A stretch of DNA of 40,822 nucleotides from an uncultured Planctomycetaceae bacterium (lineage in GTDB: Bacteria > Planctomycetota > Phycisphaerae > UBA1845 > UTPLA1). Both the position numbers and the translations under genes were made by a program. The stretch covers positions 1 to 40,822 of the forward strand of contig CAZNFM010000035.1 in the NCBI GenBank assembly GCA_964572385.1, read 5' to 3'. Of the stretch, positions 13,457 through 40,822 are shown piece after piece; position 1 is the stretch's first letter; the number at the start of each line of letters is the position of its first letter. The notes beneath the pieces were generated by a model. It was not told the DNA's origin and did no database searches. It saw only the letters and a program-made list of their open reading frames with translations.

Positions 13457-14821
13457 TTATGCCTTGCGCACCACAGGCGGGGGAGTCGGCTGCGGAGGGC
13501 TGGCAGACTGCTGAGCGGCGTCGCCCGCGAGGTTACCTGCGATGCTGCGGGTCAGGTGCCGCAGATCGACTCCTAGCACGCTTTCCAACGTGGCCAGCGA
13601 TTCCGCGAGCATCTTGGCTCGACTGAGGGCCGCGCCGGCCACCGCCTGACCGTCCCCGCTGTCGATGACCGTCACATTGCCCAGCCGAACCGTCTGCACG
13701 CTCTTGGCCACCTCGCCGACGACGGACGGCAGCATCTCCACCAGCATGACCTTGAGGGCATCGGGGTACTTCTGGATCGCCTGACCAATCGTTTCGATGG
13801 CGGCGGCGCGAGCCTTGCCTTCCTCAAGGACGGAAGCGGCGTCGCCTTCGGCCTTGGCGCGAGCCACGTCGCGATCCGCGATGGCCTTCTGCACTTCGGA
13901 TGCACGCAAGCGGGCGCCTTCGGCCTTGGCGGCGGCTTCCTGCTGCTCGGCTTCCTTGAGTGCAGCTTCGCGAGCCAGTTCCGCACGTCGGATCCGCAAG
14001 GCGTTCTCCGCCTCGGCGATGGCTTTCTCGGCCGCCAAGCGGGCCTGTTCGGCGCGCTGGTTGGCGGCGGCTTCGGTGGTCTTGGCTTCCGCGTCGCGGT
14101 TCGCCTTGGCCTGTCGCGCCGCGGCTGCGGCCTCGGCTTCCTTGACCGCCGCCTCGGCAGCTCGTTCCGCCTCGGCCTTGCGGGCCTGGGCCAGCACCTC
14201 GGCCCGGGCCTTGCGGGCGATCGAGACGAGGTACTGTTCCTCGTCGTGAACGTTCTGGATATTCACGCTGTCGATGAGCAGGCCGAGCTTACGGAAGTCG
14301 TCCGACACCTCGTTCATGACCGTGGCGACGAACTTATCGCGGTCTTCGACGATCTCCTCCGGCCGCATCTTGCCGATGACCGCGCGCAAGCCGCCTTCCA
14401 GCGTCTCTCGCGCCACCCGCTGAATCTCCTGCGGGGGGTGACCAAGAAACCGCTCAATGGCGTTGGGCCGCAGCGCGGGATCGGAGGAGATCTTCACGTT
14501 GGCCACGCCGTTGATGTTGATCGGCAGCATCGTCCCACCGCCGGATTGGGCCTTGACCTCCAGGCCGACCTGCATATTGCGCAGGCCCAGACGCTCCACT
14601 TTCTCGAAGATCGGGATGACGCAGGTCCGCCCGCCGATCAGCACGCGATAGCCCTGGCCCTCGCGGTTTCGCTTGCCGCTGATGATCAGCATCTCGCTGG
14701 GATTGCCAACCACCGTCAACTTGGCGATGACGATCACTACGAAGAGAAACAAGAATAACAGGAGAACGCCGATGGCGACTCCAGTGCTCCAGCCATCGGC
14801 CAGGATGGGGAATGTGCTCAC
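13457..14821 (-). CDS. Flotillin-like SPFH/band-7 protein (FloT/YuaG-like) with a long Ala/Glu-rich coiled-coil
   Basis: N-terminal TM, SPFH core (LLIDSVNIQNVHDEEQYL), then the EA-rich flotillin repeat. GTG start forms a GTGA overlap with the nfeD stop. Confidence 0.9.
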   Translation of the reverse strand: MSTFPILADGWSTGVAIGVLLLFLFLFVVIVIAKLTVVGNPSEMLIISGKRNREGQGYRVLIGGRTCVIPIFEKVERLGLRNMQVGLEVKAQSGGGTMLPININGVANVKISSDPALRPNAIERFLGHPPQEIQRVARETLEGGLRAVIGKMRPEEIVEDRDKFVATVMNEVSDDFRKLGLLIDSVNIQNVHDEEQYLVSIARKARAEVLAQARKAEAERAAEAAVKEAEAAAAARQAKANRDAEAKTTEAAANQRAEQARLAAEKAIAEAENALRIRRAELAREAALKEAEQQEAAAKAEGARLRASEVQKAIADRDVARAKAEGDAASVLEEGKARAAAIETIGQAIQKYPDALKVMLVEMLPSVVGEVAKSVQTVRLGNVTVIDSGDGQAVAGAALSRAKMLAESLATLESVLGVDLRHLTRSIAGNLAGDAAQQSASPPQPTPPPVVRKA

Positions 14822-17439: not shown

Positions 17440-18099
17440 CTACTGGCGACGAAAAACGTATCCGCCCTTGGTCGCTCCCCAGACCTGGCGGCCTTCCGCA
17501 TCGTAACCGCGGTCCCAGGTGATGAGCTCGTCCGGCGTGACGGTGGCTTCCGAGGTGGCGTACGCCGCTCCGCGCAGCGTGCTGGCGCAGTCTTGTCCCG
17601 CCGTGCGGCCCACAAAGCATTTTGCCGCGGTTCGCCGTAGGATCAGTGAACAGCCCTCTCGCAGAATCAGTTGGTCGGGCGTTAAGCGGTCCAAAATGCT
17701 CGGATCCCGCCAGGCTCCGGCAAACCGTAGCGGATCTCCGGGCAGCTCGTAAACAATGCTCTCGATGGTTCCGTCACTCCGGGGGCAAAGGCGGTATACC
17801 CGCTGCCGGTAAGGTTGGTCGAGCTTTTCCGCGGCAGCCTGTTCCACATAGATCCACGGCCCGTCCGTGCGAGCAGGCCAGATCGGCATCATGTGGAGCC
17901 GTATGTCAAAGAAGTTCTCCGGGTCGGCTTGGTGCTGGGCGGCGCTGCTGAATGAGCCGCACAGCCAGGCAGCCAATAATCGGCAGTCATCTTCCGCCGG
18001 CTTGGGGGACCGCGACGAGGTCGGCTGAGCAACGCGGCAGCCGCACAGCAGCACCGTGCTGAGCATGATGAAGCGAGCCACTCGATGACGGCAAAACAT
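17440..18099 (-). CDS. CpcT/CpeT-like (DUF1001) lipoprotein; bilin-lyase-family fold in a non-phycobilisome context
   Basis: ATG 18099 with GGAGAA SD. Lipoprotein signal (…VLLCGC). Family motif LAAWLCGSFSSAAQHQADPENFFDIRLHMMPIW…GPWIYVEQ…PYRQRVYRL. Confidence 0.6.
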   Translation of the reverse strand: MFCRHRVARFIMLSTVLLCGCRVAQPTSSRSPKPAEDDCRLLAAWLCGSFSSAAQHQADPENFFDIRLHMMPIWPARTDGPWIYVEQAAAEKLDQPYRQRVYRLCPRSDGTIESIVYELPGDPLRFAGAWRDPSILDRLTPDQLILREGCSLILRRTAAKCFVGRTAGQDCASTLRGAAYATSEATVTPDELITWDRGYDAEGRQVWGATKGGYVFRRQ

Positions 18100-18427
18100 A
18101 GATTTCTCCGCTGTGCCCCTGGGATTCGGCTCAAGGGCGATTCGCATCGTACCCGCCGCATCCGGCGCGGCCAATGGATGGCTAACGGCCATGTCTGTCG
18201 GGAGCCGCAGTCGACAGGATCCGGACGGAACAACGACCCTTCGCCCGCACCCGTGATCTGCTACCGGCTTATGGTCCAGTTCTTGCGAGAGCCGGGACCA
18301 TGTGCAGGTTCACGTTCTGTTTCCTCATTTCTTGCAGCAGTGAGAATAAGCCGGGAGTTCGGGGGGCAGCGGTCCACGGATCGGCATTGGCCGGCGAACG
18401 TCGCCTGCGGCTCACTCGGCGGGTTGA

Positions 18428-19162
18428 TTACCGCGCTGGGGCCGGGGCCTGCTCGTCGATCACCTCAACCGGAACCTGCACCTCTCCGAACTTCAGGAAA
18501 CCGGGAACGAATGGACTGTTGTAAGCCAGATACCTTGGGGAGCCGGCGACCTTGAAACGCGGGGGATTCTGCTTCAACCAGGCCTCGATCTGTCGGAGGC
18601 CGTGGGACAGGTTTCTCGCCGTGTAGCCGCCGCGCACGCCGACGGACAAAACCATCATGGAAGGCAAATCTGCGACCTCCACTCGAGGGTCCGCCGGATC
18701 GGGCCCAACCCTACCGAGAGAAGGCTCTCGATACAGGAAAGCCATAGCCTGGGCTCGCGGCTCGTGTTGATCCAGCGGTTCCGCGGCCGCTTCGTCCCCT
18801 AGCGTGGCAGCATACTTGATCTCCACCGGAGCGGTCATGGCAATCTCATGGCGTTGAATGTGCTGAAAAAGGGGGCGAAACATGTCGTTCGGATCACCGC
18901 CGCCGCCATCGGCCGTGCGGACTCGCGCGAAGCGGTATGACGGGTAACTCTTGAGGACGACCTGCCCGACCGGTCCCGCCGGCGGAAAGCCATCCGGAAG
19001 CGGAGCTTCACGAAAAAGAAACGGCGGCTTCGGCTGCCTGCCTGGCGAGGTTACCGCAGTGTCTCCTTGCGGCGAGTTCATCAGGCCGCGGGTGCCCTCG
19101 TGTTGACAGCCATAAGCCGCCAGGCCGGCAATTGCCGCGATCATGCACCAAATCCAAGGCAT
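18428..19162 (-). CDS. SOUL/HBP heme-binding family lipoprotein
   Basis: ATG with GAGGGAA SD. Lipobox (LAAYGC). SOUL-type C-terminal region (…RYLAYNSPFVPGFLKFGEVQVPV). Confidence 0.7.
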   Translation of the reverse strand: MPWIWCMIAAIAGLAAYGCQHEGTRGLMNSPQGDTAVTSPGRQPKPPFLFREAPLPDGFPPAGPVGQVVLKSYPSYRFARVRTADGGGGDPNDMFRPLFQHIQRHEIAMTAPVEIKYAATLGDEAAAEPLDQHEPRAQAMAFLYREPSLGRVGPDPADPRVEVADLPSMMVLSVGVRGGYTARNLSHGLRQIEAWLKQNPPRFKVAGSPRYLAYNSPFVPGFLKFGEVQVPVEVIDEQAPAPAR

Positions 19163-28585: not shown

Positions 28586-30544
28586 ATGGAACCCGAGAAC
28601 ATAGAAGTCCGGAATGCTCGCCAGCACAATCTCCGCAACGTCTCCGTGACGCTGCCGCGGAATCGACTCATCGTCTTCACCGGCGTGAGCGGCAGCGGCA
28701 AGAGTTCGCTTGCCTTCGACACGCTCTACGCGGAAGGGCAGCGCCGCTACATCGAGTCGCTTTCCGCCTATGCCCGCCAGTTCATCGGTCAGATGCAGAA
28801 ACCGGATTGCGACCTGATCACCGGGCTGTCGCCCTCCATCGCGATCGAGCAGAAGTCAACCGGATGGAACCAGCGCTCCACGGTGGGAACCCTCACGGGA
28901 ATCATGGATTTTCTGCGGGTTCTCTATGCTCGAGTCGGTCGGCAGCATTGTCCGGAGTGCGGGCGGCCCATCGCCGCGCAGTCTCGAGAGCAAGTCGTGG
29001 AGAGCATTCTGCGGGGCCACGCTTCGTCTGGCGGTTCAACCACTGCTCCAGCGGCTCGAGTGCTGATCCTGGCGCCGGTGGCACGCGGGCAGAAGGGGGA
29101 GTTTCGCGATCTATTTGACGATCTCATTCGGACAGGATACGTCCGTGCGCGGGTCGACGGCCGCGTCGTGTCCCTACGCGAAGCCCCGGCCTTGCAGAAA
29201 AACCAGCGCCACAACATCGACTTGGTGATCGACCGTTTGGAAATCGGCGAGAACAATCGGGGTCGACTGGCCGAGGCGGTTGACGCGGCGTTGCGGTTGG
29301 GCAAGGGCACGCTGATCGTTTCTCCGGACGACCCGGGGGTGGCCGAAACGCCTGAAAGGCAACGGCGAAGCGGGCAGAGCATGGATCGCGTGTTTTCCTC
29401 TCGCTATGCCTGCTCGGTGTGCGAACTGTCGCTCGAGCCGCCGACGCCGCAGTTATTTTCCTTCAACTCGCCCAGCGGCATGTGCCACTCCTGCGATGGG
29501 CTCGGCGAGCAGTTCGACTTCGATCCGGATCTGCTTGTGCCGGATGCCTCGCTCAACTTCTGGGCGCCCTGCGTGGCGCCCTTGCGCACGAAGATCGGCA
29601 GATGGCGGCGGCACATCTACGAAGGCGTGGCTCGCGCACTCGGCGTCGATCTCGACCAGCCGTGGAGGGATCTGCCCGCTTCCGCTCGCCGGGCCTTATT
29701 GCAGGGCACGGGGGACCGGCACATCACCTATGAATGGCGATGGTCAAAGGGCACCTGGAGACACGGCGGCAAATTCGAGGGCGTGATCGAGGAGTTGCGC
29801 CAGAAGTACCGCCAGGCCAAGGCCCCGTTCATCAGGCGGTATTACGAGAGGTTCATGACGCGCCGACCATGCCCGGCTTGCGAAGGGGGACGGCTCAACG
29901 CACAGGCGCTGGCGGTACACTTGCCGGTCAAGGGGGCCAGTCGGGGACCGAGCATCCGCGAATTCGCGGCCTTGTCGGTGAAGGCCGCGTGGGACTTGCT
30001 GACGCGGTTGGAGCTGACGCCCGTGCAGCGGATTATCGCCGAGGACCTGCTCAAAGAAGTGGGGGCCCGGCTGGAATTTCTGCTGAACGTGGGGTTGCAT
30101 TATCTGGCGCTGGAGAGGACCGCACCGACGCTCAGTGGCGGCGAGTTGCAGCGTATTCGCCTGGCCGGGCAGATCGGCGCGGGGCTGGCCGGCGTGCTGT
30201 ATGTCCTCGATGAACCGTCGATCGGATTGCATCCGCGCGACAACCAGCACCTGCTGGAAAGCTTGGGTCGGCTGCGGGACCTCGGCAACACGGTCATCGT
30301 GGTCGAGCACGACGAGGCGACGATGTGCGCCGCCGACCATATCGTGGACTTCGGTCCCGGCCCGGGTGTGAGGGGAGGACGGATCGTGGCCGAAGGCTCG
30401 TACGCGGAGATCGTCGGCAACGCCGAGTCGCTGACGGGGCGATACCTGAGTGGCCGGGAGGAAATCCCCATCCCGACGCGGCGCCCGGTGGTCGTAAACC
30501 GCCGACGACGTAGCCGGGAAAGGAATGCAAAGCAGCCGAAGTGA
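28586..30544 (+). CDS. uvrA: UvrA-like protein consisting only of ABC module I (N-terminal half of excinuclease ABC subunit A, including the UvrB-binding and insertion domains)
   Basis: 652 aa. Walker [35 protein letters not shown], Zn modules (CPECG…, CSVC…CHSCDG, CPACEGG), signature LSGGELQRIRLA, Walker B LYVLDEPSIGLHPRD and H-loop VEHD. Ends …LTGRYLSGREEIPIPTRRP, exactly where canonical UvrA continues into module II, then a basic tail and a stop. Confidence 0.9.
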   Translation: MEPENIEVRNARQHNLRNVSVTLPRNRLIVFTGVSGSGKSSLAFDTLYAEGQRRYIESLSAYARQFIGQMQKPDCDLITGLSPSIAIEQKSTGWNQRSTVGTLTGIMDFLRVLYARVGRQHCPECGRPIAAQSREQVVESILRGHASSGGSTTAPAARVLILAPVARGQKGEFRDLFDDLIRTGYVRARVDGRVVSLREAPALQKNQRHNIDLVIDRLEIGENNRGRLAEAVDAALRLGKGTLIVSPDDPGVAETPERQRRSGQSMDRVFSSRYACSVCELSLEPPTPQLFSFNSPSGMCHSCDGLGEQFDFDPDLLVPDASLNFWAPCVAPLRTKIGRWRRHIYEGVARALGVDLDQPWRDLPASARRALLQGTGDRHITYEWRWSKGTWRHGGKFEGVIEELRQKYRQAKAPFIRRYYERFMTRRPCPACEGGRLNAQALAVHLPVKGASRGPSIREFAALSVKAAWDLLTRLELTPVQRIIAEDLLKEVGARLEFLLNVGLHYLALERTAPTLSGGELQRIRLAGQIGAGLAGVLYVLDEPSIGLHPRDNQHLLESLGRLRDLGNTVIVVEHDEATMCAADHIVDFGPGPGVRGGRIVAEGSYAEIVGNAESLTGRYLSGREEIPIPTRRPVVVNRRRRSRERNAKQPK

Positions 30545-31227
30545 GAATGCTAAGGAGCCGGCCGTCGACACGCAACGTCGGGGCAGACTGTTGGACGAAC
30601 AGACTCGCTCGCGGGCGCCTCAGGAGCGCGGTCGCCTGATGCGGCAGTTCATCGTCCCGGCGATGAACCCGGCGAAGCGGTTTCGTACTATGTGCGTGCT
30701 CATGGACCGGGCCATCGTGCAGACCGGAGAGAAGCGAGGGTGGGAGCGGGGTGCATGACCGGACAAAGTTGGCGATGCGTGGAGTCCTCGCGGTACGCAT
30801 CTTGCGGCGGGGCGGTGCGAAGCGGCGCTTGCGGTCGCGGGTTTCTCTTTCTCAGCAATGCTGAGAATGGCAATTGGCCTGACGCGCGATGGCGAGTTCG
30901 CAAGCAGATGGCCAAGGCGGAGTGGAGCGGGCGGTGCATTCGATCAGAGCCGCCGTGGCGCCTTGCCGAAATCCTGCCGCATTTTCGAGCCGGCGACGTC
31001 AAGACCGCTGCGTTCCGACCCGGGGAAGGTTGGCGGGAATTGGAAGTGCGGAAACAGGATGATTGCGGGTGCTCTCTCCGGGAGGTCAGTTTGAAGAGAC
31101 TGAGCTCGTCACCGCCGGAAGCTCATTCCTGTCACAGATGTGAGTTCCCGATGGACCAGACCGATCTGCACGCGCTGAAATCGCCAATCCAAGTTGTTCT
31201 GTGCGAATTCCCGGATGCCGGCGCGCT

Positions 31228-34200
31228 ATGAGTCCCAAACGAACTCCTGCTCGACCACAGACCGCTGTCACCGCAAGCCCATCTGCGGGCAAGGTGTGCT
31301 GTCCGTGGCTAACCATCCGCGGGGCTCGCCACAACAACCTCAAGAACCTTGACGTGTCAGTTCCACTCGGGCGGTTCGTCTGCGTGACCGGCGTCTCCGG
31401 CTCCGGCAAGTCCTCGCTGGTGAACGACATTCTCTACGAGCAACTCGCCGCCGATCTCAACGGTCTTACCGGGGTGCACCCCGGTCGCCATCGTTCGATC
31501 GAGGGCAAGGAGCATCTGGACAAGGTCATCGGCATAGACCAGTCGCCGATCGGGCGAACCCCGCGAAGCAACCCGGCGACCTACGTCAAGGTCTTCGACG
31601 AGATCCGTGACTTATTCGCCCGGCTGCCGGACAGTCGAGTCCGCGGCTATCAGCCGGCCCGCTTCAGTTTCAACGTCGCCACCGGCGAGCGCGGCGGTGG
31701 TCGGTGCGAGGCCTGCGAAGGCAACGGGGCCAACCGCGTGGAAATGGAGTTCCTTGCGGATGTTTGGGTGACGTGCCCCGTCTGCGGCGGCCGCCGATTC
31801 AACCAGGAAACGCTCCAGATTCAATTCAAGGGCAAGAGCATCCACGACGTGCTCGAAATGGACGTGCAGGAGGCCCTGCGGCATTTCGAGAGCATCCCCA
31901 AGGTGCGAGCCATGCTGGCCACGCTCCAGGAGGTCGGCCTGGACTACCTGAAACTGGGCCAGTCGAGCACCACGCTTTCCGGAGGCGAGGCCCAGCGAAT
32001 CAAACTGGCGCGCGAGCTGGTCCGGCGCAGCACCGGCCGGACCCTGTATATTCTCGATGAGCCGACCACGGGCCTGCACTTCGATGACGTCCGCCGCCTG
32101 CTCACGGTGCTGCATGGCTTCGTGGATGCCGGCAACACGGTGGTGGTCATCGAGCACAATCTCGACGTGATCAAGACGGCAGACTGGGTGATCGACTTGG
32201 GGCCGGAAGGCGGAGACGACGGTGGCGAGGTGGTCGTCGCGGGAACGCCCGAAGATGTGCAGAAATGTCGCCGTTCGCACACCGGACAGGCGCTGCGAGA
32301 GGCCCAGATGCGCCGATTTGTGGCGAGTGCCGAGAAACAAGCCCGGGCTTCCAAGCTCACCACCGCAGGCAAGAGCAACACCCCAGCGGCCACCGGGCTT
32401 GCCTCCCACGGATGCTCCGCGCCAAGGCTCTCCGGCGCCGAGATCGTCGTGGTGGGGGCCCGCGAGAACAACCTTCGCAACCTCACGGTTCGCGTGCCGC
32501 GAAGCCGGATGACGGTGTGTTCCGGCGTCTCGGGCAGCGGCAAGACCAGCTTTGCACTGGACACGGTTTATACCGAAGGCCAACGCCGCTACATGGAGTC
32601 TCTGTCCGCATACGCCCGTCAGTTCCTCGGGCAACTCCAGAAGCCCAAGGTGGATCACATCCACGGCTTGTCGCCGGCCGTCGCGATCGAACAACAAGCG
32701 GCCAGCAAGAGTCCCCGTTCCACGGTGGGCACGGTCACGGAAATTTATGACTACATGCGGGTATTGTGGGCACGAGTGGGCCGCCCCTACTGCCCGCAAT
32801 GCGGCGTGCCGGTGGAGAGGCAGACGAGCGACGAGATCCTCGAACAGATCATGAGCCTGCCTGCGGGCACACGGCTGCTGCTTTGCGCGCCGATTGAGAG
32901 TTCTCCTGGTGACACCTGGGCCGCGGTGTTCGAGCGATGCCGGGCCCAAGGCTATACTCGGGCTCGGGTAGACGGTCACGTCGTGGAGTTGGCGGCCTCG
33001 CCTGAAATCGACAGTCGACAGAGACACCGCGTGGAGCTGGTGGTCGACCGCATTGAGGTGCGGGCGGCTTCTCGTTCGCGTATCGGAGATTCGGTTGAAC
33101 ACTGCCTGGCCATGGGGCGCGGCGTCATGTGGGCGGTGCCGGCGGGCCATTCCGGCCGAGCGGACGAGTTCAGGGAAACCTCACCCGACCGAAGTGTGCG
33201 CGACAGTGCTCGAAGATTCTCGCAACACCGATCGTGTCCGGAGTGCGGTGCCGGCTTCACCGAATTGACTCCCCACCATTTCAGCTTCAATTCCCGACTG
33301 GGCTGGTGCCCAGCGTGCGAGGGGCTCGGCGTGCAGCGCGGCACGACCGTTGACACCATCATCGCACGGCCCCAGCAGTCGATTGTCGGCGGAGCTATCG
33401 TCGGATGGGAGGACGTCTCCCGGCGGCCCTTATTCCGGCGCATCCTGCTGGCCTTGGCCCGGGCGATCGGCATTGATCCCGAGGCGCCCTGCGCATCCCT
33501 GACGCCGGCTCAACGGCATGATCTCTTGTTCGGTCTGGGGGAACGCTGGATCGACACGGTGGCGGAAAAGGTAGAGAATGAGGCGGTCGGCCAACCCAGC
33601 CTACGATTCCAATGGAAAGGGTTCTTTCCGGCAATCGATGAGGCTACGCGGGCATCGTGGGAGTACCGCTATCGTTTGCAGGACCTGGCGGCGGACACCG
33701 TCTGCCAGGCCTGTCGTGGGGGACGGCTGCGTCCGGAGGCCGCGGCGGTTCGCCTGGAGGACAGCAACGGAGGGAAAGGAACGAGCATCGTGGAGGCGTG
33801 CCGCATGCCGCTGGCGGCGGCGGCCGCTTTCTTCGAGTCCCTCCGGCTGGACCGCCGGCAGGCGCGCATCGCTGGGGAACTCCTGCACGAAATCAAGTCC
33901 CGGTTGCGATTCCTTCTGGATGTCGGCTTGGAGTATCTCTCGCTGGATCGATCAGCGCCGACGCTCTCGGGCGGGGAGTCACAACGGATTCGCCTCGCGT
34001 CGCAGATCGGCAGCGGATTGACCGGCGTCCTTTACGTCCTGGACGAGCCAACCATCGGGCTGCATCCACGCGACAACCAGCGGCTCGTGAAAGCCCTTCA
34101 CAGGTTGCGGGATCTCGGCAACACCCTGTTGCTTGTCGAACACGACCGCGAGGTGATCGAATCGGCGGATCACCTGCTCGACTTCGGCCCCGGCGCCGGT

Positions 34201-36576
34201 CGGGAAGGCGGCGAGATCGTGGCCGCCGGTTCGCCCCGACAGATTGCCCGTCAAAGCCGCTCACCACGAGCCCGTCGCGCCCGGGTCACAGAAACGGCCG
34301 GCGACTCTGGCGCGCACGTCAAAGCGACGGATTCAGTGGGGACCTCGGTGACGGGTCGCTACCTCGCAGGCGTGGACGCGATTCCCGTGCCGACCAACCG
34401 TCGTCCAATCGGTGTTCCGCCTGATCAGGGGGAAACGAGCCGTGCGGCGGGCGGCACCGAAACGTTGAGACCCGAACTGGATGCTCGCGGGGCTGGGAAT
34501 TCGCGGGAACCGGACGTGCAGCACTGGCTGATCATCCGAGGCGCTCGGCATAACAATCTGCGCGGAATCGACGTCGCCTTCCCCTTGGGCCGGTTCATCT
34601 GCGTGACCGGTGTCTCCGGTTCAGGCAAGTCCTCGCTGATCACGGAGACTCTGCAACCGGCCCTCGCGGCCCGCATTCATCGCGTTCGCGCTGCCCCGGG
34701 TGACCACGATCGCCTGGTAGGTGTCGAGCACATCGACAAAGTCATCACGGTGGACCAGCAGCCGATCGGCAGCAGCCCGATGTCCAACCCTGCGACCTAC
34801 ACCGGCGTGTTCGACTTGTTGCGCGAGATCTTCGCCCGCCTGCCGGAAAGCCGCGTTCGCGGGTACACCGCCAATCGATTCAGTTTCAACCGTCCGGGCG
34901 GGCGATGCGAAGGCTGTGACGGTTACGGGCAGGTCTACTATGAGATGCACTTCTTGCCCGACGTCTGGGTACCCTGCGAAACATGCGAGGGCAAGCGTTA
35001 CAACCGCGAGACGCTCGAGGTGCGTTACAAGGGCCTGAACATCGCGGAAGTGCTGGAGTTGCCCGTGAGCGAGGCGCTGCGGCATTTTGCCAATGTGCCG
35101 AAGGTTCGTCGCATGTTGCAGACGCTGGAAGACGTGGGACTGGGCTACCTGCCGCTTGGCCAAGGGGCGCCGACCCTCTCCGGAGGCGAGGCCCAGCGGC
35201 TCAAGTTGGCGGCGGAGCTGGGCCGTCCCAATACCGGCCGAACCATCTACTTCCTCGATGAACCCACCACCGGCTTGCACTTCGAGGACCTGCGAAAACT
35301 GCTGGGCGTGCTTCACCGCTTGGTTGATCTGGGCAACACTGTCATCTGCATTGAGCATAACCTGGAGCTCCTCAAGACCGCGGATTACGTGATCGACCTG
35401 GGACCGGAAGCCGGGGACCAGGGCGGCATCGTGGTCGCCGCAGGGCCGCCTGAAACGGTGGCCCAAGCTGCCGCCTCCCACACCGGCCGCCTGCTCCGGA
35501 AGATACTGGCGGCTGGTCCGCATCGAGAAAGGAAGCCGTTCGAACCGCACCGCTCCGTGTCAGCGCCGGAGGTCGGTTCCGGTTCCGATTTGCAAGCGAC
35601 GGAGTCCGTCCAGATGCCCTGGGAGCGGGACGGCCGCCGCTGGCACACCGCCCTGCGACCCAGCCGCGAGGGCCGGCCGGTCCGCTGGGAGGCCGCGGCG
35701 CTGGAGTACGTGGTGGAGCGGATCGAGCGGATCGGCCGGAATCGCCTTCTGCCCACCGACTGGGCGGATCGGGCGCGGGTGGAGATCAAGGCGCGGGCGC
35801 CGGCTGGGCTGCCGCAGACTGCGGTGCCGTGGTTCTGTCACATCCTCACCGGGGGTGAATGGTTGTTGGATCTGCTGTTCCGAGTACCGCATGGCGTTTT
35901 CGACCCACGAAGCCTGGAGGCGGAGTTGGGGCTGAAGAGGATTGAGGAACGCAACGATATCCCAGCATACGGGGTAAACAGCCGGGTGCTGGTCCGTGCC
36001 GCCGTTGCCGACCTGGACCAAGTCCGCATTCTGGTGCATGATCGCCGGGAAGTGGCGACCGCCGCATTCAGAGGTTTCCTCTCACGGGCCTGGCAAGCCT
36101 ACTCCAGTCATCTCGAGCGATTGGCGCAGGATGCCGCGGGAGCGGAACCCTGGAAACAGGACGGCAAGGCCTGGCACCTGTCGCAGCGTTCCATTCCATC
36201 CAGCCAACCCAGGGTGTGGAAACCCCTGACGCTGGTGACGTTCCTGGGACTCATTTCGCGAATGGCCCCCGGGATCCGACCCTTGTGGGACCGCAAAGTC
36301 TTCGTTGAGCTGGTTGATGCCGCGGGCCGCCGAGTGGGCAAGATCATCACCAACCAAGGCGCGGAACTTCGCGTGGATCTACACGTTCCTCGGGGAGCGC
36401 TGACGCCGACCCGCGTCGAGAGCCTGGGGCGTCGGCAGGAGTTCGCCAGGCCCGGAAGCAGTGGCGCGGAGTTGACGTTCTGGTTTGCGGGCCTCGACGA
36501 AGTGGATCAGCAACAGCTTCGCCTGGCAATTGAGTCGGCCGCCTCCGCAGCCGCCGGGGCCCCGTCGCCTCCTTGA
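31228..36576 (+). CDS. uvrA: Giant UvrA-family fusion (1791 aa from the upstream GTG at 31201): UvrA ABC module II, then a complete second UvrA (modules I+II), then a ~350-aa C-terminal domain of unknown function
   Basis: First ATG at 31228; an in-frame GTG lies at 31201. Residues ~30-365 are UvrA module II ([17 protein letters not shown]…[21 protein letters not shown] Zn finger, [50 protein letters not shown]-terminus-like [15 protein letters not shown]). A ~45-aa linker follows. Residues ~415-1440 are a full UvrA: module I ([10 protein letters not shown]…[68 protein letters not shown]) and module II ([12 protein letters not shown]…[45 protein letters not shown]). The last ~350 aa have no recognisable family. 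Confidence 0.9.
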
Positions 36577-36633
36577 CGGATGGGCATCCGCGCCACCCTT
36601 GCCGCCAGACTTGTTCCGGCGACAATCATATTC

Positions 36634-37218
36634 ATGGCGAAGCAAGCCCTGCCCGGCCTTCTGGAAGTGGTTCACGGGTCGATGTTCGGCGGCAAGACCG
36701 AGTACATGATCGCACGCTTACGTGAGGAAGAAGCCCGCGGCAGGCGGGTCCGGGCTTTCAAACATGTGATCGACGATCGGTACGATCCGGACCACCTCGT
36801 GACCCATCGCAAGGACCGTTTCGCGGCGACCCGTGTGGCGACAGCCGAGGAACTCCTCAGCGAATCGGAGGGTTATGAGGTCGTGGCCATCGACGAGGGG
36901 CATTTCTTCACGCCCGCTCTCGTCGAGGTGGTCCGAGCAATCCGGGAACGATGTCTGGTGGTGATCGTAGCTGGGATCACGCACGATGCCTGGGGGCGGC
37001 GGTTCGCTCCCATTCCGGAGCTGGCTCGCATGGCGGATCGGGAGATCCTGCGGCAGGCGCCGTGCTCGATCTGTGGGGAACCATCTCCTTTCACCCAGCG
37101 TATGACTCCGGTGAGGTCGGCCCACATGGTCGGTGGATTAGGAGACTACGAGCCGCGTTGCGCCCTTCATTTCGAACCCCTTACCGAAGCTGTCGGGGAC
37201 GCCTTCGGGCGGAGGTGA
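36634..37218 (+). CDS. tdk: Thymidine kinase
   Basis: P-loop FGGKTEYMIAR, VIAIDEGHFF, and the C-terminal zinc ribbon of type II Tdk (CSICGEPSPFTQRM…CALH). ATG 36634 is preferred over the upstream in-frame ATG 36580, which lies only 4 nt after the uvrA-fusion stop. Confidence 0.9.
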   Translation: MAKQALPGLLEVVHGSMFGGKTEYMIARLREEEARGRRVRAFKHVIDDRYDPDHLVTHRKDRFAATRVATAEELLSESEGYEVVAIDEGHFFTPALVEVVRAIRERCLVVIVAGITHDAWGRRFAPIPELARMADREILRQAPCSICGEPSPFTQRMTPVRSAHMVGGLGDYEPRCALHFEPLTEAVGDAFGRR

Positions 37219-37347
37219 TCGGATGCGTTCAGGGGCGGCAGAGCCAGGAGCCGCCTTGTCGTGAAGGACCGCTTTGTCTACGATGCGGTGTCCCCTCCGG
37301 GAGAGGGGTTCGCGGCGGTCCGTTCGAAACGGAGGCGTTGACACCGC

Positions 37348-37704
37348 ATGCCCCACCGACATCACTCGACATGTCGATCGGCCGTTTGGCCGGCTTGCGC
37401 CGCCGCCGCGCTGGTGGTGGGATGCAGAGCGCCTGAAGGCAGCATCCACTCGTGGAACCCCAGCGAGCGGGTTCTCGCGATCCGCAAAGCGGCCATGGCC
37501 AAGGATGTTCACGCCGTGCCGCTCATCGTGGATCGCCTGGAGGACGAAGACATTGCCGTCCGCCTGTTCGCGATCCTCGCCTTGCAGGAGATCACCGGCG
37601 AGCGGTTCGGTTATGATTACACGGCGACCGGGCCTCGGCAGGCGGCGGCGGTGGAAGCCTGGCGGAGCTATGTCCGCGGCGGCGGCCATCTGGCTGGCCC
37701 ATGA
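37348..37704 (+). CDS. HEAT-repeat (PBS-lyase-like) lipoprotein
   Basis: ATG with GGAGG SD. Lipobox (ALVVGC). HEAT-like repeat (VPLIVDRLEDEDIAVRLFAILALQEITGERFGYD). Its stop (37702-37704) lies 10 nt before the ATG of the next gene. Confidence 0.55.
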   Translation: MPHRHHSTCRSAVWPACAAAALVVGCRAPEGSIHSWNPSERVLAIRKAAMAKDVHAVPLIVDRLEDEDIAVRLFAILALQEITGERFGYDYTATGPRQAAAVEAWRSYVRGGGHLAGP

Positions 37705-37714
37705 GAGCGGTGTC

Positions 37715-38182
37715 ATGATCGATTCGGAGCGGCTCGAGCTGATCGTCGCCAGCCAGGCGGCCAGCCTGCCAGTGGTCCGCAACGCAGTGGAGCAGATGGC
37801 CCGGATGGAGCAATTTACCGACGCGGAAACGCACGGCCTCCTGTTGGCGATTGACGAGGCCCTGGCCAACGTCATCAAGCACGGTTACGAGGGCCGGCCC
37901 GACCAGCCCATCCGCATCGTTCTGGCTCACACTGAGGGCCCGGATGGTCGCAAAGGCTTGGCGGTGGAGGTCCGCGACCAAGGACGGCAGGTGGACCCCG
38001 CAACCATTAGGGGCCGCGATCTAGATGATGTCCGCCCCGGAGGCTTGGGCGTGCATATCATGCAGTCCGTGATGGACGAAGTATGCTACAGTTGCCCGCC
38101 TGACGGCGGCATGTTGCTCCGCATGGTCAAGTACGCCGGTTCCAGCCGCAAAGATGGCCACCGGCCACCCGACGCAAGCTAG
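37715..38182 (+). CDS. RsbW/SpoIIAB-like anti-sigma factor / Ser-protein kinase (GHKL HATPase_c_2)
   Basis: ~155 aa. N-box-like LAIDEALANVIKHGYEG, G-box region DVRPGGLGVHIMQSVMDEV. The track ORF 37274..38182 has a non-protein-like TTG/ATG-extended N-terminus that I reject; an in-frame alternative start is at 37670. Confidence 0.75.
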   Translation: MIDSERLELIVASQAASLPVVRNAVEQMARMEQFTDAETHGLLLAIDEALANVIKHGYEGRPDQPIRIVLAHTEGPDGRKGLAVEVRDQGRQVDPATIRGRDLDDVRPGGLGVHIMQSVMDEVCYSCPPDGGMLLRMVKYAGSSRKDGHRPPDAS

Positions 38183-38216
38183 GTCTGCGCCGGCCACGGA
38201 AGGGATTTGGACGCCC

Positions 38217-38564
38217 ATGGACAAGCCCCGCAGTCTGATCCAGGAAATCCGCAAGGTTCCAGGCACCACGATCGTGGTGTTGTCGGGCGACGTGGACCTA
38301 CACCACTCGCCGGAGCTCCACGCCCGCCTGGTGGAGGTCGCCGCGGAACGCCCGCCTCGCCTGCTGCTGGATCTGCGAGGCGTGCCGTACATGGATTCCT
38401 CAGGTGTCGGGACTCTGGTGGAGGTGTGGCGACGGGTGGGGGCCTACAAGGGCCGACTGGTGCTATTCGGCTTGAACAGCCGCGTTCGCAGCGTCTTCGA
38501 GATCACCAAACTCGATACGTTCTTCACCATCTGCGAAACGGAGGAAGAGGCCGCCACCGCGTAG
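38217..38564 (+). CDS. STAS-domain anti-sigma-factor antagonist (RsbV/SpoIIAA/MlaB-like)
   Basis: GGAAGGGA SD. 115 aa with a STAS pattern including the conserved phospho-acceptor Ser region (LDLRGVPYMDSSGVGTLVEV). Confidence 0.75.
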   Translation: MDKPRSLIQEIRKVPGTTIVVLSGDVDLHHSPELHARLVEVAAERPPRLLLDLRGVPYMDSSGVGTLVEVWRRVGAYKGRLVLFGLNSRVRSVFEITKLDTFFTICETEEEAATA

Positions 38565-38581
38565 ACAGGAGCGGACCGCGC

Positions 38582-39451
38582 ATGAGTGAGCGTCCGGCAT
38601 CTCGAGAAGCCGCCAAACTGACAACCGGGCTCATTCGCTCGCTGGAGGCCATCGGTGAAATGGTGTTGGCGCAGGGCCGGAACGTCGCCGGCTTCATGGC
38701 CTTTCTCGGCGGCGCAGTGCTCTTGCTGGGGGAGACGCTTGGGTGGATCTACCGCTCGCTGGTCCGGCGCGAGGTGCGGTTCGGGAAGGAGAGCCTCCTG
38801 AGCCAGATGGTCCGCGTCGGGGTTCGCAGCATTCCGATCGTGGCTTTGGTACAGGTTTTCATCGGCATCATTCTCGCCTTGCAGATGGCGCCGACATTGC
38901 GTGATTACGGGCAGGTGCAGCGAGTGGCGGACATCGTGGCCATCGCCGTATTCAGGGAACTGGGGCCCCTGCTTTCGGCGATCGTGCTCTCGGGCTTCGC
39001 GGGGGCCAGCATCGCGGCGGAACTGGGCGCGATGGTCGAGGGCGAGGAGGTCAAAGCCCTCCGCGCGACCGCCCTGAACCCGGTTCGCTTCCTGGTGATG
39101 CCGCGGTTTCTCGCGACCGTGGTCATGCTGACCTTGCTGACCGTGATCGCCGATGTGGTGGGCGTCCTGGGTGGTTTTTTGACCGGAACCACCGTGCTTG
39201 GCCTCGATCCCACGCAATACCTCAGCTACACGCGATCGGCGTTGACCCATCAGGACTTTCTCACCGGTCTGGCCAAGGCCGGTGTCTTCGGCGTGCTCAT
39301 TTCCATTATTGCCTGCTACGAAGGCTTGAACGTCAGCGGTGGGGCGGAGGGGGTCGGCCGGGCCACGACCAATACGGTGGTCAAGTGCATCGTCGCCCTG
39401 ATATCGGCGGATGTCATCTTCACCGCCATTTTCTACGCCTTCGGATGGTGA
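38582..39451 (+). CDS. mlaE: MlaE/YrbE-family ABC transporter permease (phospholipid/lipid transport)
   Basis: AGGAG SD, 18 nt after the STAS stop. 5 TM. Family signature near the C-terminus: NVSGGAEGVGRATTNTVVKCIVALISADVIFT. The track ORF 38207..39451 carries a Gly/Arg-rich spurious N-terminal extension overlapping the STAS gene. Confidence 0.85.
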   Translation: MSERPASREAAKLTTGLIRSLEAIGEMVLAQGRNVAGFMAFLGGAVLLLGETLGWIYRSLVRREVRFGKESLLSQMVRVGVRSIPIVALVQVFIGIILALQMAPTLRDYGQVQRVADIVAIAVFRELGPLLSAIVLSGFAGASIAAELGAMVEGEEVKALRATALNPVRFLVMPRFLATVVMLTLLTVIADVVGVLGGFLTGTTVLGLDPTQYLSYTRSALTHQDFLTGLAKAGVFGVLISIIACYEGLNVSGGAEGVGRATTNTVVKCIVALISADVIFTAIFYAFGW

Positions 39452-39481
39452 GCCGACCTGCATTCTGCCGCGGCTGCCCGT

Positions 39482-40678
39482 CTATCGCGGGGGAGCCGCG
39501 ACGGAATACACCATATGATCGGGACGCTGATACGTCAGGCGGTGTGCGTAAAGGGTCTCCTCGCCTGTGTGGCCAAGCTGGCCTCGGACCAGCGGAACCT
39601 CCCTCCACTCGATGACTCCCGAGAAACACCGCCGGTTGCCGCTCGACCAGGCCGCGCTCGGGTCGGGCACCAGGCGGATGTCCAGCCGGGCCCCACGCGA
39701 AGGAGCGTAGAAGTTGTCGACCCGCACCCGTTCATGATCGACAAACTCACTGAGGGAAATCTGGCCGACTTCGCGGTATTCCGCATCGCTGCCCGATGGC
39801 CGAACCAGCACGGTCGCGGCGATGGGAATGCCGGTACTTGCGGCGCGAAGCCAGATCGCTCCACCGCGGCCCGTGCGATCGCGGCGAACCGCAGCCGCGC
39901 CGAGCCGATGCCATATCGCCCAGACGGTGGCGGCGTTGGCCGTCTGTTGAATGTACTGAGTCGCATCGCCCTCGGTGGCGAGGGTGCCGCTCAGTCGAAA
40001 CGGTCTCTCCACGACCAGGGTTGCCTTCTGCGGACCGAACTGAACTGCGTTAAGAGCCACCGTTCCCTCAACAACGATCTCATGACCACCGGGAGCGAGT
40101 CGTGGCCCAGTCACAAGACACTTTCCGGCCAAGTGTGGAATCAGGGTCCGGGACAGGGTCTCGGTCGGCACGTCCTGACCATCCACGAACATCCGCAAGC
40201 CCGCAACGCTCAGGAAGTAGGTGTTGACCGGCAAGGTGAGTGGATTCTCGTAACTGAGCCGAAACCTGACGGGTGCGTCGACGGGTTGTCGTGTCTCCAA
40301 GGAGAGGTTGGGCGCCCCCAACATGGACAGCAGGTACTTCTTCGCCTCCTGTTCGTTCAGCTCGTTGGCCTGGAATCTGCGGTGGAGTTCGGTGCGCGGC
40401 GCGGTTCCTTCATCGCTCTGTACGGCCAGCAGAACGCGGGCCGGCACCCACCTGATGAAGTGATAGTAACGGTTGCCGTAGTATGCGGCGCTGACGAGAC
40501 TTAGCAAGAGCAGAATCAGTAGCAGGCGAGTCAAGGACCGCCGCAGCCGCACATGCTCGGGCCGAGCCAGCAGCTTGTCCGCGGGGATATCCAGCCCGCA
40601 TTCCGGGCAGCGGCCCGGATTCGTAGGGTAATCACACTGCGGGCAGAAGCCGGTCGGTTGTGGAGTACTGCCGGGCAT
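39482..40678 (-). CDS. Membrane protein with an N-terminal Cys4 zinc-ribbon, one TM helix and a large extracytoplasmic domain of unknown function
   Basis: ATG 40678. CPQCDY…CPECG ribbon, then a hydrophobic LLLILLLLSLVSAAYY segment. High GC3 throughout. Confidence 0.65.
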   Translation of the reverse strand: MPGSTPQPTGFCPQCDYPTNPGRCPECGLDIPADKLLARPEHVRLRRSLTRLLLILLLLSLVSAAYYGNRYYHFIRWVPARVLLAVQSDEGTAPRTELHRRFQANELNEQEAKKYLLSMLGAPNLSLETRQPVDAPVRFRLSYENPLTLPVNTYFLSVAGLRMFVDGQDVPTETLSRTLIPHLAGKCLVTGPRLAPGGHEIVVEGTVALNAVQFGPQKATLVVERPFRLSGTLATEGDATQYIQQTANAATVWAIWHRLGAAAVRRDRTGRGGAIWLRAASTGIPIAATVLVRPSGSDAEYREVGQISLSEFVDHERVRVDNFYAPSRGARLDIRLVPDPSAAWSSGNRRCFSGVIEWREVPLVRGQLGHTGEETLYAHRLTYQRPDHMVYSVAAPPR

Positions 40679-40685
40679 TATCGGC

Positions 40686-40714
40686 AGTATAACTAATATC
40701 TCTGTTCACACCAA
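40686..40714 (-). promoter_or_regulatory. Candidate sigma70-like promoter giving a near-leaderless transcript for the zinc-ribbon membrane protein
   Basis: On the minus strand: TTGGTG-17 nt-TATACT, with the -10 ending ~8 nt before ATG 40678. There is no SD in between. This is an AT-rich island at the window edge. Confidence 0.25.
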
Positions 40715-40822
40715 GTATGATTCGCGGCGTCTGGAACGGCATCGGTGAAGCGGTCGGCCGCTGCGGACGGAGATATTGTCAAATCTCGTTGATGGCGTCG
40801 TGATCAGGCGGCGTCCTTCTGG

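Follow-up and report, generated by a model that had tools for sequence, protein, structure and literature searches.

What does a partner-switching kinase do beside a lipid-transport permease? The question is raised by a contig of an uncultured Planctomycetaceae bacterium of the class Phycisphaerae (GenBank assembly GCA_964572385.1, contig CAZNFM010000035.1), of which we analyzed the stretch from position 1 to 40,822 nucleotides (nt), referred to below as the window. At positions 37348-39451, on the forward strand, four tightly packed genes encode, in this order, a HEAT-repeat lipoprotein, a GHKL-family kinase, a STAS protein and an MlaE-family permease. Do the kinase and the STAS protein serve the transporter to which the permease belongs, or a sigma factor encoded at another place? 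We read the four genes as a single operon that supplies a Phycisphaerae-type Mla (MlaEFD) phospholipid transporter, of the ATP-binding cassette (ABC) class, with its permease and its regulators, and we put a probability of roughly 55% on a model in which the kinase turns this transporter down by phosphorylating the STAS protein. The closest named relatives were metagenome-assembled genomes of Phycisphaerae, Phycisphaerales or Planctomycetota, and identical copies of its proteins were also found in Logan assemblies.

An initial annotation of this DNA had described four co-directional genes with gaps or overlaps of 10-35 nt, each with its own Shine-Dalgarno (SD) sequence, and had stated that no MlaF, MlaD or MlaC gene follows and that the next gene is convergent. 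Our analysis bore out each of these points. The coordinates were confirmed (Table 1), with intergenic gaps of 10, 34 and 17 nt; if the kinase starts at an alternative ATG, 37670, it has the 170 residues given for it in public databases, and its gene then shares 35 nt with the HEAT gene. Purine-rich SD-like motifs, read from the sequence, lie 7-12 nt upstream of all four starts (GGAGG, GAGAG, GGAAGGGA and AGGAG). The convergent gene, at 39482-40678, begins 30 nt past the MlaE stop, and the inverted repeat at this junction is situated partly in the 30-nt spacer and partly at the 3' end of the convergent gene. Its arms, separated by 10 nt, are 81% complementary and probably form a hairpin that terminates transcription from both sides and closes the operon. 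Consensus scans of positions 36400-40822 detected no terminator-like site between the four genes and no sigma-70-like promoter, and terminator-like matches occurred only at background level. A MlaF-, MlaD/MCE- or MlaC-like gene was not found in the 40.8-kb window, either by Pfam searches of the long open reading frames (ORFs) or by a scan for Walker-A and LSGGQ motifs, and tblastn searches of the same 40.8 kb with Phycisphaerae MlaF and MlaD queries returned no matching gene. The remaining genes of the window are housekeeping genes: ribonucleotide reductase, NAD-dependent DNA ligase, amidase, UvrA-like proteins and thymidine kinase.

Table 1. Features of the putative Mla regulatory operon in the window
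Feature	Coordinates	Strand	Description
HEAT-repeat lipoprotein	37348..37704	+	118 aa, operon gene 1; PF13646 HEAT_2 E=5e-6
RsbW/SpoIIAB-like GHKL serine kinase	37715..38182	+	155 aa; PF13581 HATPase_c_2 E=2e-24
Single-domain STAS protein, SpoIIAA/RsbV type	38217..38564	+	115 aa; PF01740 E=1e-22
MlaE-family ABC permease	38582..39451	+	289 aa, final operon gene; PF02405 E=5e-71
Inverted repeat	39459..39510	.	between convergent MlaE and 398-aa genes; 21-nt arms

Conservation of the gene neighborhood had been suggested as a check, and the four-gene arrangement is found in about 100 related loci with varied flanks, far beyond chance. Among the Pfam-labelled neighborhoods of kinase and MlaE homologues that we examined (L002-L010), the order lipoprotein-kinase-STAS-MlaE occurred in seven distinct ones (L002/L003, L004 and L007-L010), and an eighth (L005/L006) held lipoprotein, kinase and STAS without MlaE. 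Scanning one genome per GTDB species with MlaE yielded 17 loci, with MlaE identities of 47-80%. By tblastn, the STAS gene lay directly 5' of mlaE in every one of these loci that had upstream sequence, and the kinase and HEAT genes were present in all but a few of them. A metagenome scan with the kinase alignment added 80 loci. Counting only loci with assessable flanks, the STAS gene followed the kinase gene in 67 of 68, the HEAT gene preceded the kinase gene in 59 of 63, and MlaE followed STAS in 51 of 53. Genes in these loci were detected by tblastn with a handful of queries, and several loci are near-duplicates.

Spacing was also tight in the orthologues, with intergenic distances from -8 to about +50 nt and frequent overlaps of 4 or 8 nt, including the ATGA type. 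The surroundings of the module differed among lineages. Thymidine kinase and UvrA genes lie upstream in the window and in L002/L003, a divergent PIG-L gene lies upstream in eight loci, and in L016-L026 the module stands between an upstream GuaA gene and a convergent adenine deaminase gene downstream. The module thus has three or more unrelated kinds of surroundings, and its four genes evidently travelled jointly through rearrangements.

The permease scored 239 bits on PF02405 (cut-off 22.5) and 215.1 bits on TIGR00056 (cut-off 212.2), and it fell below the E. coli-type model NF033619 (183.5 versus 315 bits). Its best matches in the PDB were the MlaE proteins of P. aeruginosa, E. coli and A. 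baumannii (6e-37 to 3e-31), followed by mycobacterial YrbE1A (2e-27). The initial annotation had called it an orphan MlaE. This is accurate for the window, which holds no partner genes, but it describes a derived local state, as sister lineages run on into mlaF and a long mlaD. MlaE orthologues (47-93% identity) always stood behind a STAS gene, and in about half of the related loci genes for an MlaF-like ATPase and for a long protein of the MCE/MlaD type came next after mlaE. An ABC ATPase directly after mlaE was detected in 25 loci by motif scan, and after a tblastn pass at least 34 orthologous loci had MlaF in this place, 26 of them together with the long MlaD.

The identity of the two additional proteins was supported by family models. 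The ATPases of L047 and L014 (306-310 residues) are ABC_tran proteins whose best NCBIfam model, of all those for ABC families, is MlaF PRK11831, at 171-179 bits and under its equivalog cut-off. The protein encoded after the ATPase has 420-470 residues, in the order transmembrane segment, MCE domain and helical region, and a single sequence barely matches any family. At the level of the family, 13 of 16 members matched PF02470 MlaD (best E=3e-11) and eight matched the helical domain Mce4_CUP1. A profile of the family retrieved from the PDB 13hr_I (6.7e-8), Mce1B (1.5e-5), LetB, and MlaD of A. baumannii and E. coli (7e-4 to 2e-3), with the MlaD and Mce1B alignments running from the N-terminal transmembrane helix into the MCE domain. 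On the strength of these profile and Pfam matches, we refer to it as the long MlaD. We also considered MlaE-MlaF fusions, suggested by frames of 543-606 residues in L043, L060 and L097, and rejected them: Pfam placed ABC_tran in the C-terminal half only, and the frames are therefore open out-of-frame overlaps in GC-rich DNA.

Counted over all loci, some of them redundant, the most frequent architecture was lipoprotein-kinase-STAS-MlaE with no ATPase within 700 nt (33 loci); in general, absence of MlaF here means that none was seen within roughly 700-1300 nt past mlaE. The full six-gene form was found in 21 loci, and eight more showed it up to a contig end after MlaF. Three loci had kinase-STAS-MlaE-MlaF-MlaD with the HEAT gene not detected or not assessable, and two (L014, L015) had the six-gene form without the kinase. 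In the MlaE phylogeny, the clade of the window consists of four-gene loci throughout; it is monophyletic and nested in a grade of six-gene loci, and L016-L026 with a few others form a further four-gene clade on the other side of the root. Most simply, this would mean that the ancestral operon had six genes and that the lineage of the window lost the linkage to mlaF-mlaD. The two kinase-less loci, in which the order is lipoprotein-STAS-MlaE-MlaF-MlaD and STAS overlaps mlaE by 4 nt, keep the STAS gene with the mla genes, which makes its tie to the transporter independent of the kinase.

A published survey of Mla systems shows a comparable split. In their supplement, Grasekamp et al. 2023 (PMC10665443) tabulate contiguous mlaE-F-D in Planctomycetia and an mlaE apart from mlaD in Phycisphaerae. 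The table lists Phycisphaerales mlaF-mlaD pairs unlinked to mlaE (UBA2402 DDSA01000044.1_43/_44; P. mikurensis BAM04221/BAM04222), and in UBA2402 a STAS gene flagged as MlaB (DDSA01000205.1_3) adjoins mlaE (_2). For Phycisphaerae, neither MlaA nor MlaC is listed.

The STAS domain (PF01740) spans residues 10-112 and is the sole domain of its protein, which scored 84.4 bits on the anti-sigma antagonist model TIGR00377 (cut-off 53.45). Its PDB matches were all of the SpoIIAA/RsbV/TM1442 type (best 4hyl, 3.7e-15), and no MlaB chain was among the PDB sequence matches at E<=0.01. Whether the protein carries the conserved serine was a check proposed at the outset, and the predicted phospho-acceptor, Ser61, was present in the motif MDSSGVG. 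It aligned with the motifs MSSAG, MDSAG and MDSTG of the top PDB antagonists, which contain the phosphorylated serine, and its position corresponds to that of the phosphorylated Ser58 of SpoIIAA. The DSSG motif was invariant in all kinase-bearing orthologues, and the kinase-less L014 and L015 had DSAG. In a tentative pairwise comparison with E. coli MlaB, of weak significance (E=0.089), D60-S61 fell on D51-T52, and the NCBIfam MlaB match on the STAS protein covers residues 50-101, consistent with an alignment of Ser61 with Thr52. The gene lies directly 5' of mlaE in the window and 5' of mlaE-mlaF-mlaD in sister loci. Separately, L011 holds a second, divergent STAS gene (13681-13989, forward strand), about 2.8 kb 3' of mlaE, whose product is 30% identical to the STAS protein of the window (PF01740 E=8.5e-17).

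The kinase scored 86 bits on PF13581, and its PDB sequence matches were RsbW (6m36_A, 1.4e-6) and SpoIIAB. It stayed below the curated equivalog cut-offs for RsbW (52.4 versus 145 bits on NF003144, 42.6 versus 155 on TIGR01924) and for SpoIIAB (41.7 versus 135 on TIGR01925). Since the STAS protein likewise fails the curated MlaB model, we filed the two proteins neither as RsbW nor as MlaB proper: the STAS protein resembles MlaB in its genomic position, and the kinase-STAS pair resembles RsbW-RsbV in sequence. Alignment to the boxes of SpoIIAB and RsbW identified EALANVIKHGY as the N box, RDQG as G1 and GGLGVHIM as G2. Among 19-21 orthologues, down to 36% identity, the N box DEALANVIxHGY, the G2 box PGGLGxHII and the G1 Asp were invariant; the G1 box as a whole reads RDQG in the clade of the window and EDEA in the clade L016-L026.

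Judged by these patterns, the acceptor serine and the catalytic motifs of the kinase appear to be under selection, and the kinase probably phosphorylates the STAS protein. Might the kinase instead be inactive and act by binding only, or the STAS protein be a constitutive structural subunit, MlaB-like and never phosphorylated? The G1 box does deviate from DxGxG (RDQGRQ here, EDEARQ in L016-L026), E. coli MlaB functions without a known kinase, and the two kinase-less loci still hold the DS motif. However, kinases of only 36-40% identity agree throughout in the N box (E..N..H), the G1 Asp and the G2 box, and DSSG is constant wherever the kinase occurs. This is the pattern expected under selection for catalysis, and we regard an inactive kinase or a purely structural STAS protein as very unlikely.

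The best matches of the two proteins, RsbW/SpoIIAB and SpoIIAA/RsbV, would also suit a classical sigma-factor partner switch, with the kinase as the anti-sigma factor of an unlinked sigma factor, the STAS protein as its antagonist, and the lipoprotein and MlaE co-transcribed with them or belonging to the regulon. A candidate sigma factor was indeed seen in L002/L003, whose kinase is 88% identical to that of the window. There, a FliA-like gene of the sigma-70 family, whose 262-residue product has regions 2, 3 and 4, follows mlaE at a distance of about 1.3 kb, on the opposite strand and past the convergent gene, a position that would fall just outside the window. It adjoins the gene of a 443-residue Hanks-type Ser/Thr kinase with a C-terminal transmembrane segment, and the pair (13131-15559 in L002/L003, reverse strand) probably lies directly past position 40822 in the present organism too. 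However, tblastn found neither gene within 10 kb in the other genome-derived loci, L004-L027, and a sigma factor was absent from the Pfam-annotated neighborhoods of L004-L010; we therefore rejected a nearby cognate sigma factor as a conserved partner, since among genome-derived loci it is restricted to L002/L003. A sigma switch would also leave unexplained the invariant lipoprotein-kinase-STAS-MlaE order with its translational coupling in about 100 loci, the continuation into mlaF-mlaD, and the kinase-less loci in which STAS stays joined to mla genes, and the 52 bits of the kinase fall far from the 145-bit RsbW cut-off. Overall, we consider a sigma-factor switch unlikely. The initial annotation had held that adjacency would be coincidental if the STAS protein lacked the acceptor and grouped with MlaB while the kinase grouped with sigma-specific RsbW proteins that have a sigma factor nearby; we found Ser61 kept, the STAS protein grouped with SpoIIAA/RsbV-type antagonists (TIGR00377) and not with E. 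coli-type MlaB, and no conserved sigma factor.

We therefore return to the transporter. In the mechanism that we propose, the STAS protein would be the functional MlaB equivalent of this lineage. In its unphosphorylated state it would dock on the MlaF ATPase, which would be encoded elsewhere in this organism and by the next gene in sister lineages, and would stabilize or activate the MlaF-MlaE complex. The kinase would use ATP to phosphorylate Ser61, the equivalent of SpoIIAA Ser58 and E. coli MlaB Thr52, and phospho-Ser61 would free the STAS protein from MlaF, turning transport down. Unphosphorylated STAS may also bind the kinase in the fashion of a partner switch, and a PP2C-type phosphatase from elsewhere would reset the switch.

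The scheme draws on work in E. coli. Kolich et al. 2020 (PMC7367683) reported that MlaB binds the helical subdomain of MlaF with Thr52 central in the interface, that the phosphomimetic T52E lowers MlaB-MlaF binding, and that MlaF is not retained on MlaE without MlaB. The same study describes the phosphorylation status of MlaB as unknown and the way in which "active" MlaB is regulated as an open question, with Thr52 phosphorylation attractive but unsupported and the kinase unknown. By analogy with the E. coli MlaB-MlaF pair, the STAS protein probably acts on MlaF and not on the permease itself. The earlier proposal of a STAS protein gating a permease accordingly survived in part: the STAS protein is tied to the mla genes, but its probable point of action is the ATPase. 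A similar verdict applies to the proposal of a phospho-regulated switch. That it belongs to Mla and not to a sigma factor gained support from Ser61, the TIGR00377 match, the N, G1 and G2 boxes, the lack of a conserved sigma factor and the recurrence in about 100 loci, while the phosphorylation itself is predicted from these motifs and the suggested link to stress signaling is conjectural. It is very likely that the six proteins, including MlaF and the long MlaD, make up one functional system. For the model as a whole, in which regulation passes through MlaF in the stated direction, we see a somewhat better than even chance. The sequences themselves show which genes and motifs are present, how the operon is built, how widely it is conserved and that it occurs with mlaF and mlaD; the phosphorylation step, STAS-MlaF contact, direction and lipoprotein role are what we infer.

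The first gene of the operon encodes a predicted lipoprotein, whose N-terminus combines a positively charged n-region with a hydrophobic segment ahead of the lipobox VVG-C26. All 21 orthologues taken from the loci keep Cys26, and among 31 homologues from databases its conservation is at least 90%. The mature part, of about 85 residues, has about two HEAT-like repeats, with PF13646 HEAT_2 at 27.1 bits, slightly below the cut-off of 27.7. A PDB sequence search retrieved only alphaRep/HEAT-like repeat proteins (PBS-lyase type), and an AlphaFold2 model built from database homologues, with a predicted local distance difference test score of 82, has 4-5 helices after a low-confidence N-terminus. The model matched only generic alphaRep/HEAT structures (Foldseek E>=0.05), and we dropped a specific fold as a functional lead. 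The lipoprotein gene is retained in the four-gene, the six-gene and the kinase-less forms (L014, L015), which places it on the transporter side of the module. The lipoprotein may be a periplasmic accessory of the Mla machine, and it could partner the periplasmic face of MlaE/MlaD in a lineage without MlaA and MlaC.

With one periplasmic, one membrane and two cytoplasmic signaling proteins, the module also has the layout of a transmembrane relay, and information might flow in the opposite direction: MlaE and the lipoprotein would act as sensors for the state of the envelope lipids, STAS would shuttle between transporter and kinase, and an unlinked second partner of the kinase would be the output. 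Partner-switch kinases normally have a second partner, outputs other than sigma factors are documented, for example in Anabaena, and some loci hold lipoprotein-kinase-STAS without an adjacent MlaE. On the other hand, a candidate output protein is not conserved near the module, the kinase-less loci show that the kinase is dispensable for the link between STAS and Mla, and regulation of the transporter is a simpler reading that covers all the data. We consider a relay in this direction rather unlikely. The same holds, to our judgment, for a two-way version, fairly improbable as it stands, in which the lipoprotein and MlaE/MlaD sense lipids, STAS switches between MlaF and the kinase, and the kinase holds an unlinked effector such as a sigma factor. 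If it were true, Mla activity would be both controlled by and reported to cell signaling, and a lineage that lacks MlaA/MlaC would have, in the HEAT lipoprotein, a periplasmic Mla component of a new kind.

Several points weigh against regulation of Mla by the kinase and the STAS protein. A few loci break the pattern, with kinase and STAS but no MlaE (L005, L006, L106) or a kinase without STAS (L054). Most loci are metagenome contigs without taxonomy, and the MlaE tree is a simple neighbor-joining tree rooted at its midpoint. The EDEA version of the G1 box in clade L016-L026, which is not DxG, might weaken ATP binding. The kinase is most similar to true anti-sigma factors, which keeps an output through a sigma factor in play. 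The sequence of the STAS protein is that of an ordinary anti-sigma antagonist, and its score on the curated MlaB model, NF033618, is 16.9 bits where 90 are required. Neither the locus nor nine Pfam-annotated neighborhoods contain a PP2C/SpoIIE phosphatase. Finally, mlaF and mlaD of this organism were not located, with the 40.8-kb contig and 9.4-kb copies as its only recorded contigs.

How does the module compare with characterized systems? All its parts belong to known superfamilies, namely MlaE, STAS/anti-sigma antagonist and GHKL anti-sigma-type kinase. With proteobacterial MlaFEDB it shares an MlaE-family permease, an adjoining single-domain STAS protein, an MlaF-like ATPase and an MCE protein in the sister operons, and, according to a weak alignment, a Ser/Thr at the position of MlaB Thr52. 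Unlike MlaFEDB, its STAS protein is of the SpoIIAA/RsbV type (17 bits versus 90 on the MlaB model), a GHKL kinase and a HEAT lipoprotein stand in front, the MlaD is long (420-470 residues), and in the lineage of the window mlaF and mlaD are outside the operon; MlaA and MlaC are not reported for Phycisphaerae. The minimal MlaEFD systems of Veillonella parvula and most non-proteobacterial diderms (PMC10665443) have the same core of mlaE, mlaF and long mlaD without MlaA/MlaC as the sister loci. Those systems, however, are described as lacking an MlaB counterpart, whereas here STAS, kinase and lipoprotein genes are added ahead of the core.

On the signaling side, the closest counterparts are the RsbW-RsbV and SpoIIAB-SpoIIAA modules of Firmicutes, which likewise combine a small GHKL kinase with N, G1 and G2 boxes and a DSSG STAS protein in adjacent, translationally coupled genes. 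In the rsbV-rsbW and spoIIAA-spoIIAB operons, the antagonist gene comes first. The present module has the kinase before STAS, does not reach the curated RsbW, SpoIIAB and SpoIIAA equivalog cut-offs, and has neither a sigma factor nor a PP2C phosphatase in the operon or conserved nearby; its conserved neighbors are transporter genes. Vibrio fischeri SypE-SypA, Bordetella BtrW-BtrV and Anabaena HenR/All4160/Alr3423 resemble it in pairing a kinase with a STAS protein in an apparent post-translational control of the envelope, with an output other than a sigma factor. It differs from them in that the likely target is an ABC lipid transporter, the kinase is a stand-alone single domain, and a phosphatase partner was not identified.

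A full-text literature search returned no paper connecting MlaB with a kinase, or Mla or another ABC lipid transporter with a partner switch. In the large Mla survey, MlaB was detected only by an E. coli-type model in synteny, and for this reason most of the STAS genes described here would have been missed. A whole lineage with a dedicated serine kinase beside a STAS protein in the MlaB position offers a natural system for testing phospho-control of an ABC lipid transporter, and it bears on the regulation of MlaB in E. coli, stated as open in PMC7367683. If the proposed mechanism is true, partner switching gains a new class of output, and MlaEFD systems gain a candidate periplasmic lipoprotein component.

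Other neighbors of the module were considered as additional members. PIG-L, GuaA, adenine deaminase and cyclophilin were rejected as lineage-specific housekeeping neighbors. The PIG-L/LmbE-family deacetylase gene (251-278 residues) lies divergently 5' of the lipoprotein gene in eight of the loci L004-L012, and in many of them FabA-like, Hc1 histone-like and L34 genes come before it; its absence from the window and the L016-L026 clade suggests that it is probably lineage synteny and not part of the system. A FAD oxidoreductase was dismissed as a member, as it was found after mlaD in three loci only. This FAD_binding_3/lycopene-cyclase-like gene directly follows the long mlaD on the forward strand in L014 (13076-14233), L047 (10232-11365) and L058 (6287-7312), which belong to different branches. 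The convergent gene past mlaE (39482-40678, reverse strand) was likewise not counted as a member, being common only to the window and L002/L003. Its 398-residue product has an N-terminal double zinc-ribbon-like CxxC...CxxC pattern (PF12773 E=0.006, below cut-off) and one hydrophobic segment, with no other family match found, and among L001-L027 it is shared with L002/L003 alone, at 73% identity.

Farther upstream in the window, UvrA is split over two ORFs on the forward strand. The first (28586-30544, 652 residues) has only the N-terminal part of UvrA, comprising the start of the ABC domain, UvrA_inter and UvrA_DNA-bind. The second (31201-36576, 1791 residues), about 650 nt later, has the C-terminal ATPase half, then a second set of UvrA_inter, DNA-bind and ATPase domains, and ends in an extension of about 400 residues without a Pfam match; a further ORF (30692-31231) lies between the two. 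The same split recurs in L002/L003, with 652 residues, an 80-residue ORF and 1750-1767 residues, and is therefore not a sequencing artefact, and L009 has one UvrA-like gene of 1316 residues. Elsewhere in the window, on the reverse strand, a CpeT/CpcT-family protein (17440-18192; PF06206 E=2e-55) adjoins a SOUL haem-binding-family protein (18428-19162). CpeT/CpcT is a phycobiliprotein lyase family typical of cyanobacteria, and the host here is apparently a non-photosynthetic planctomycete.

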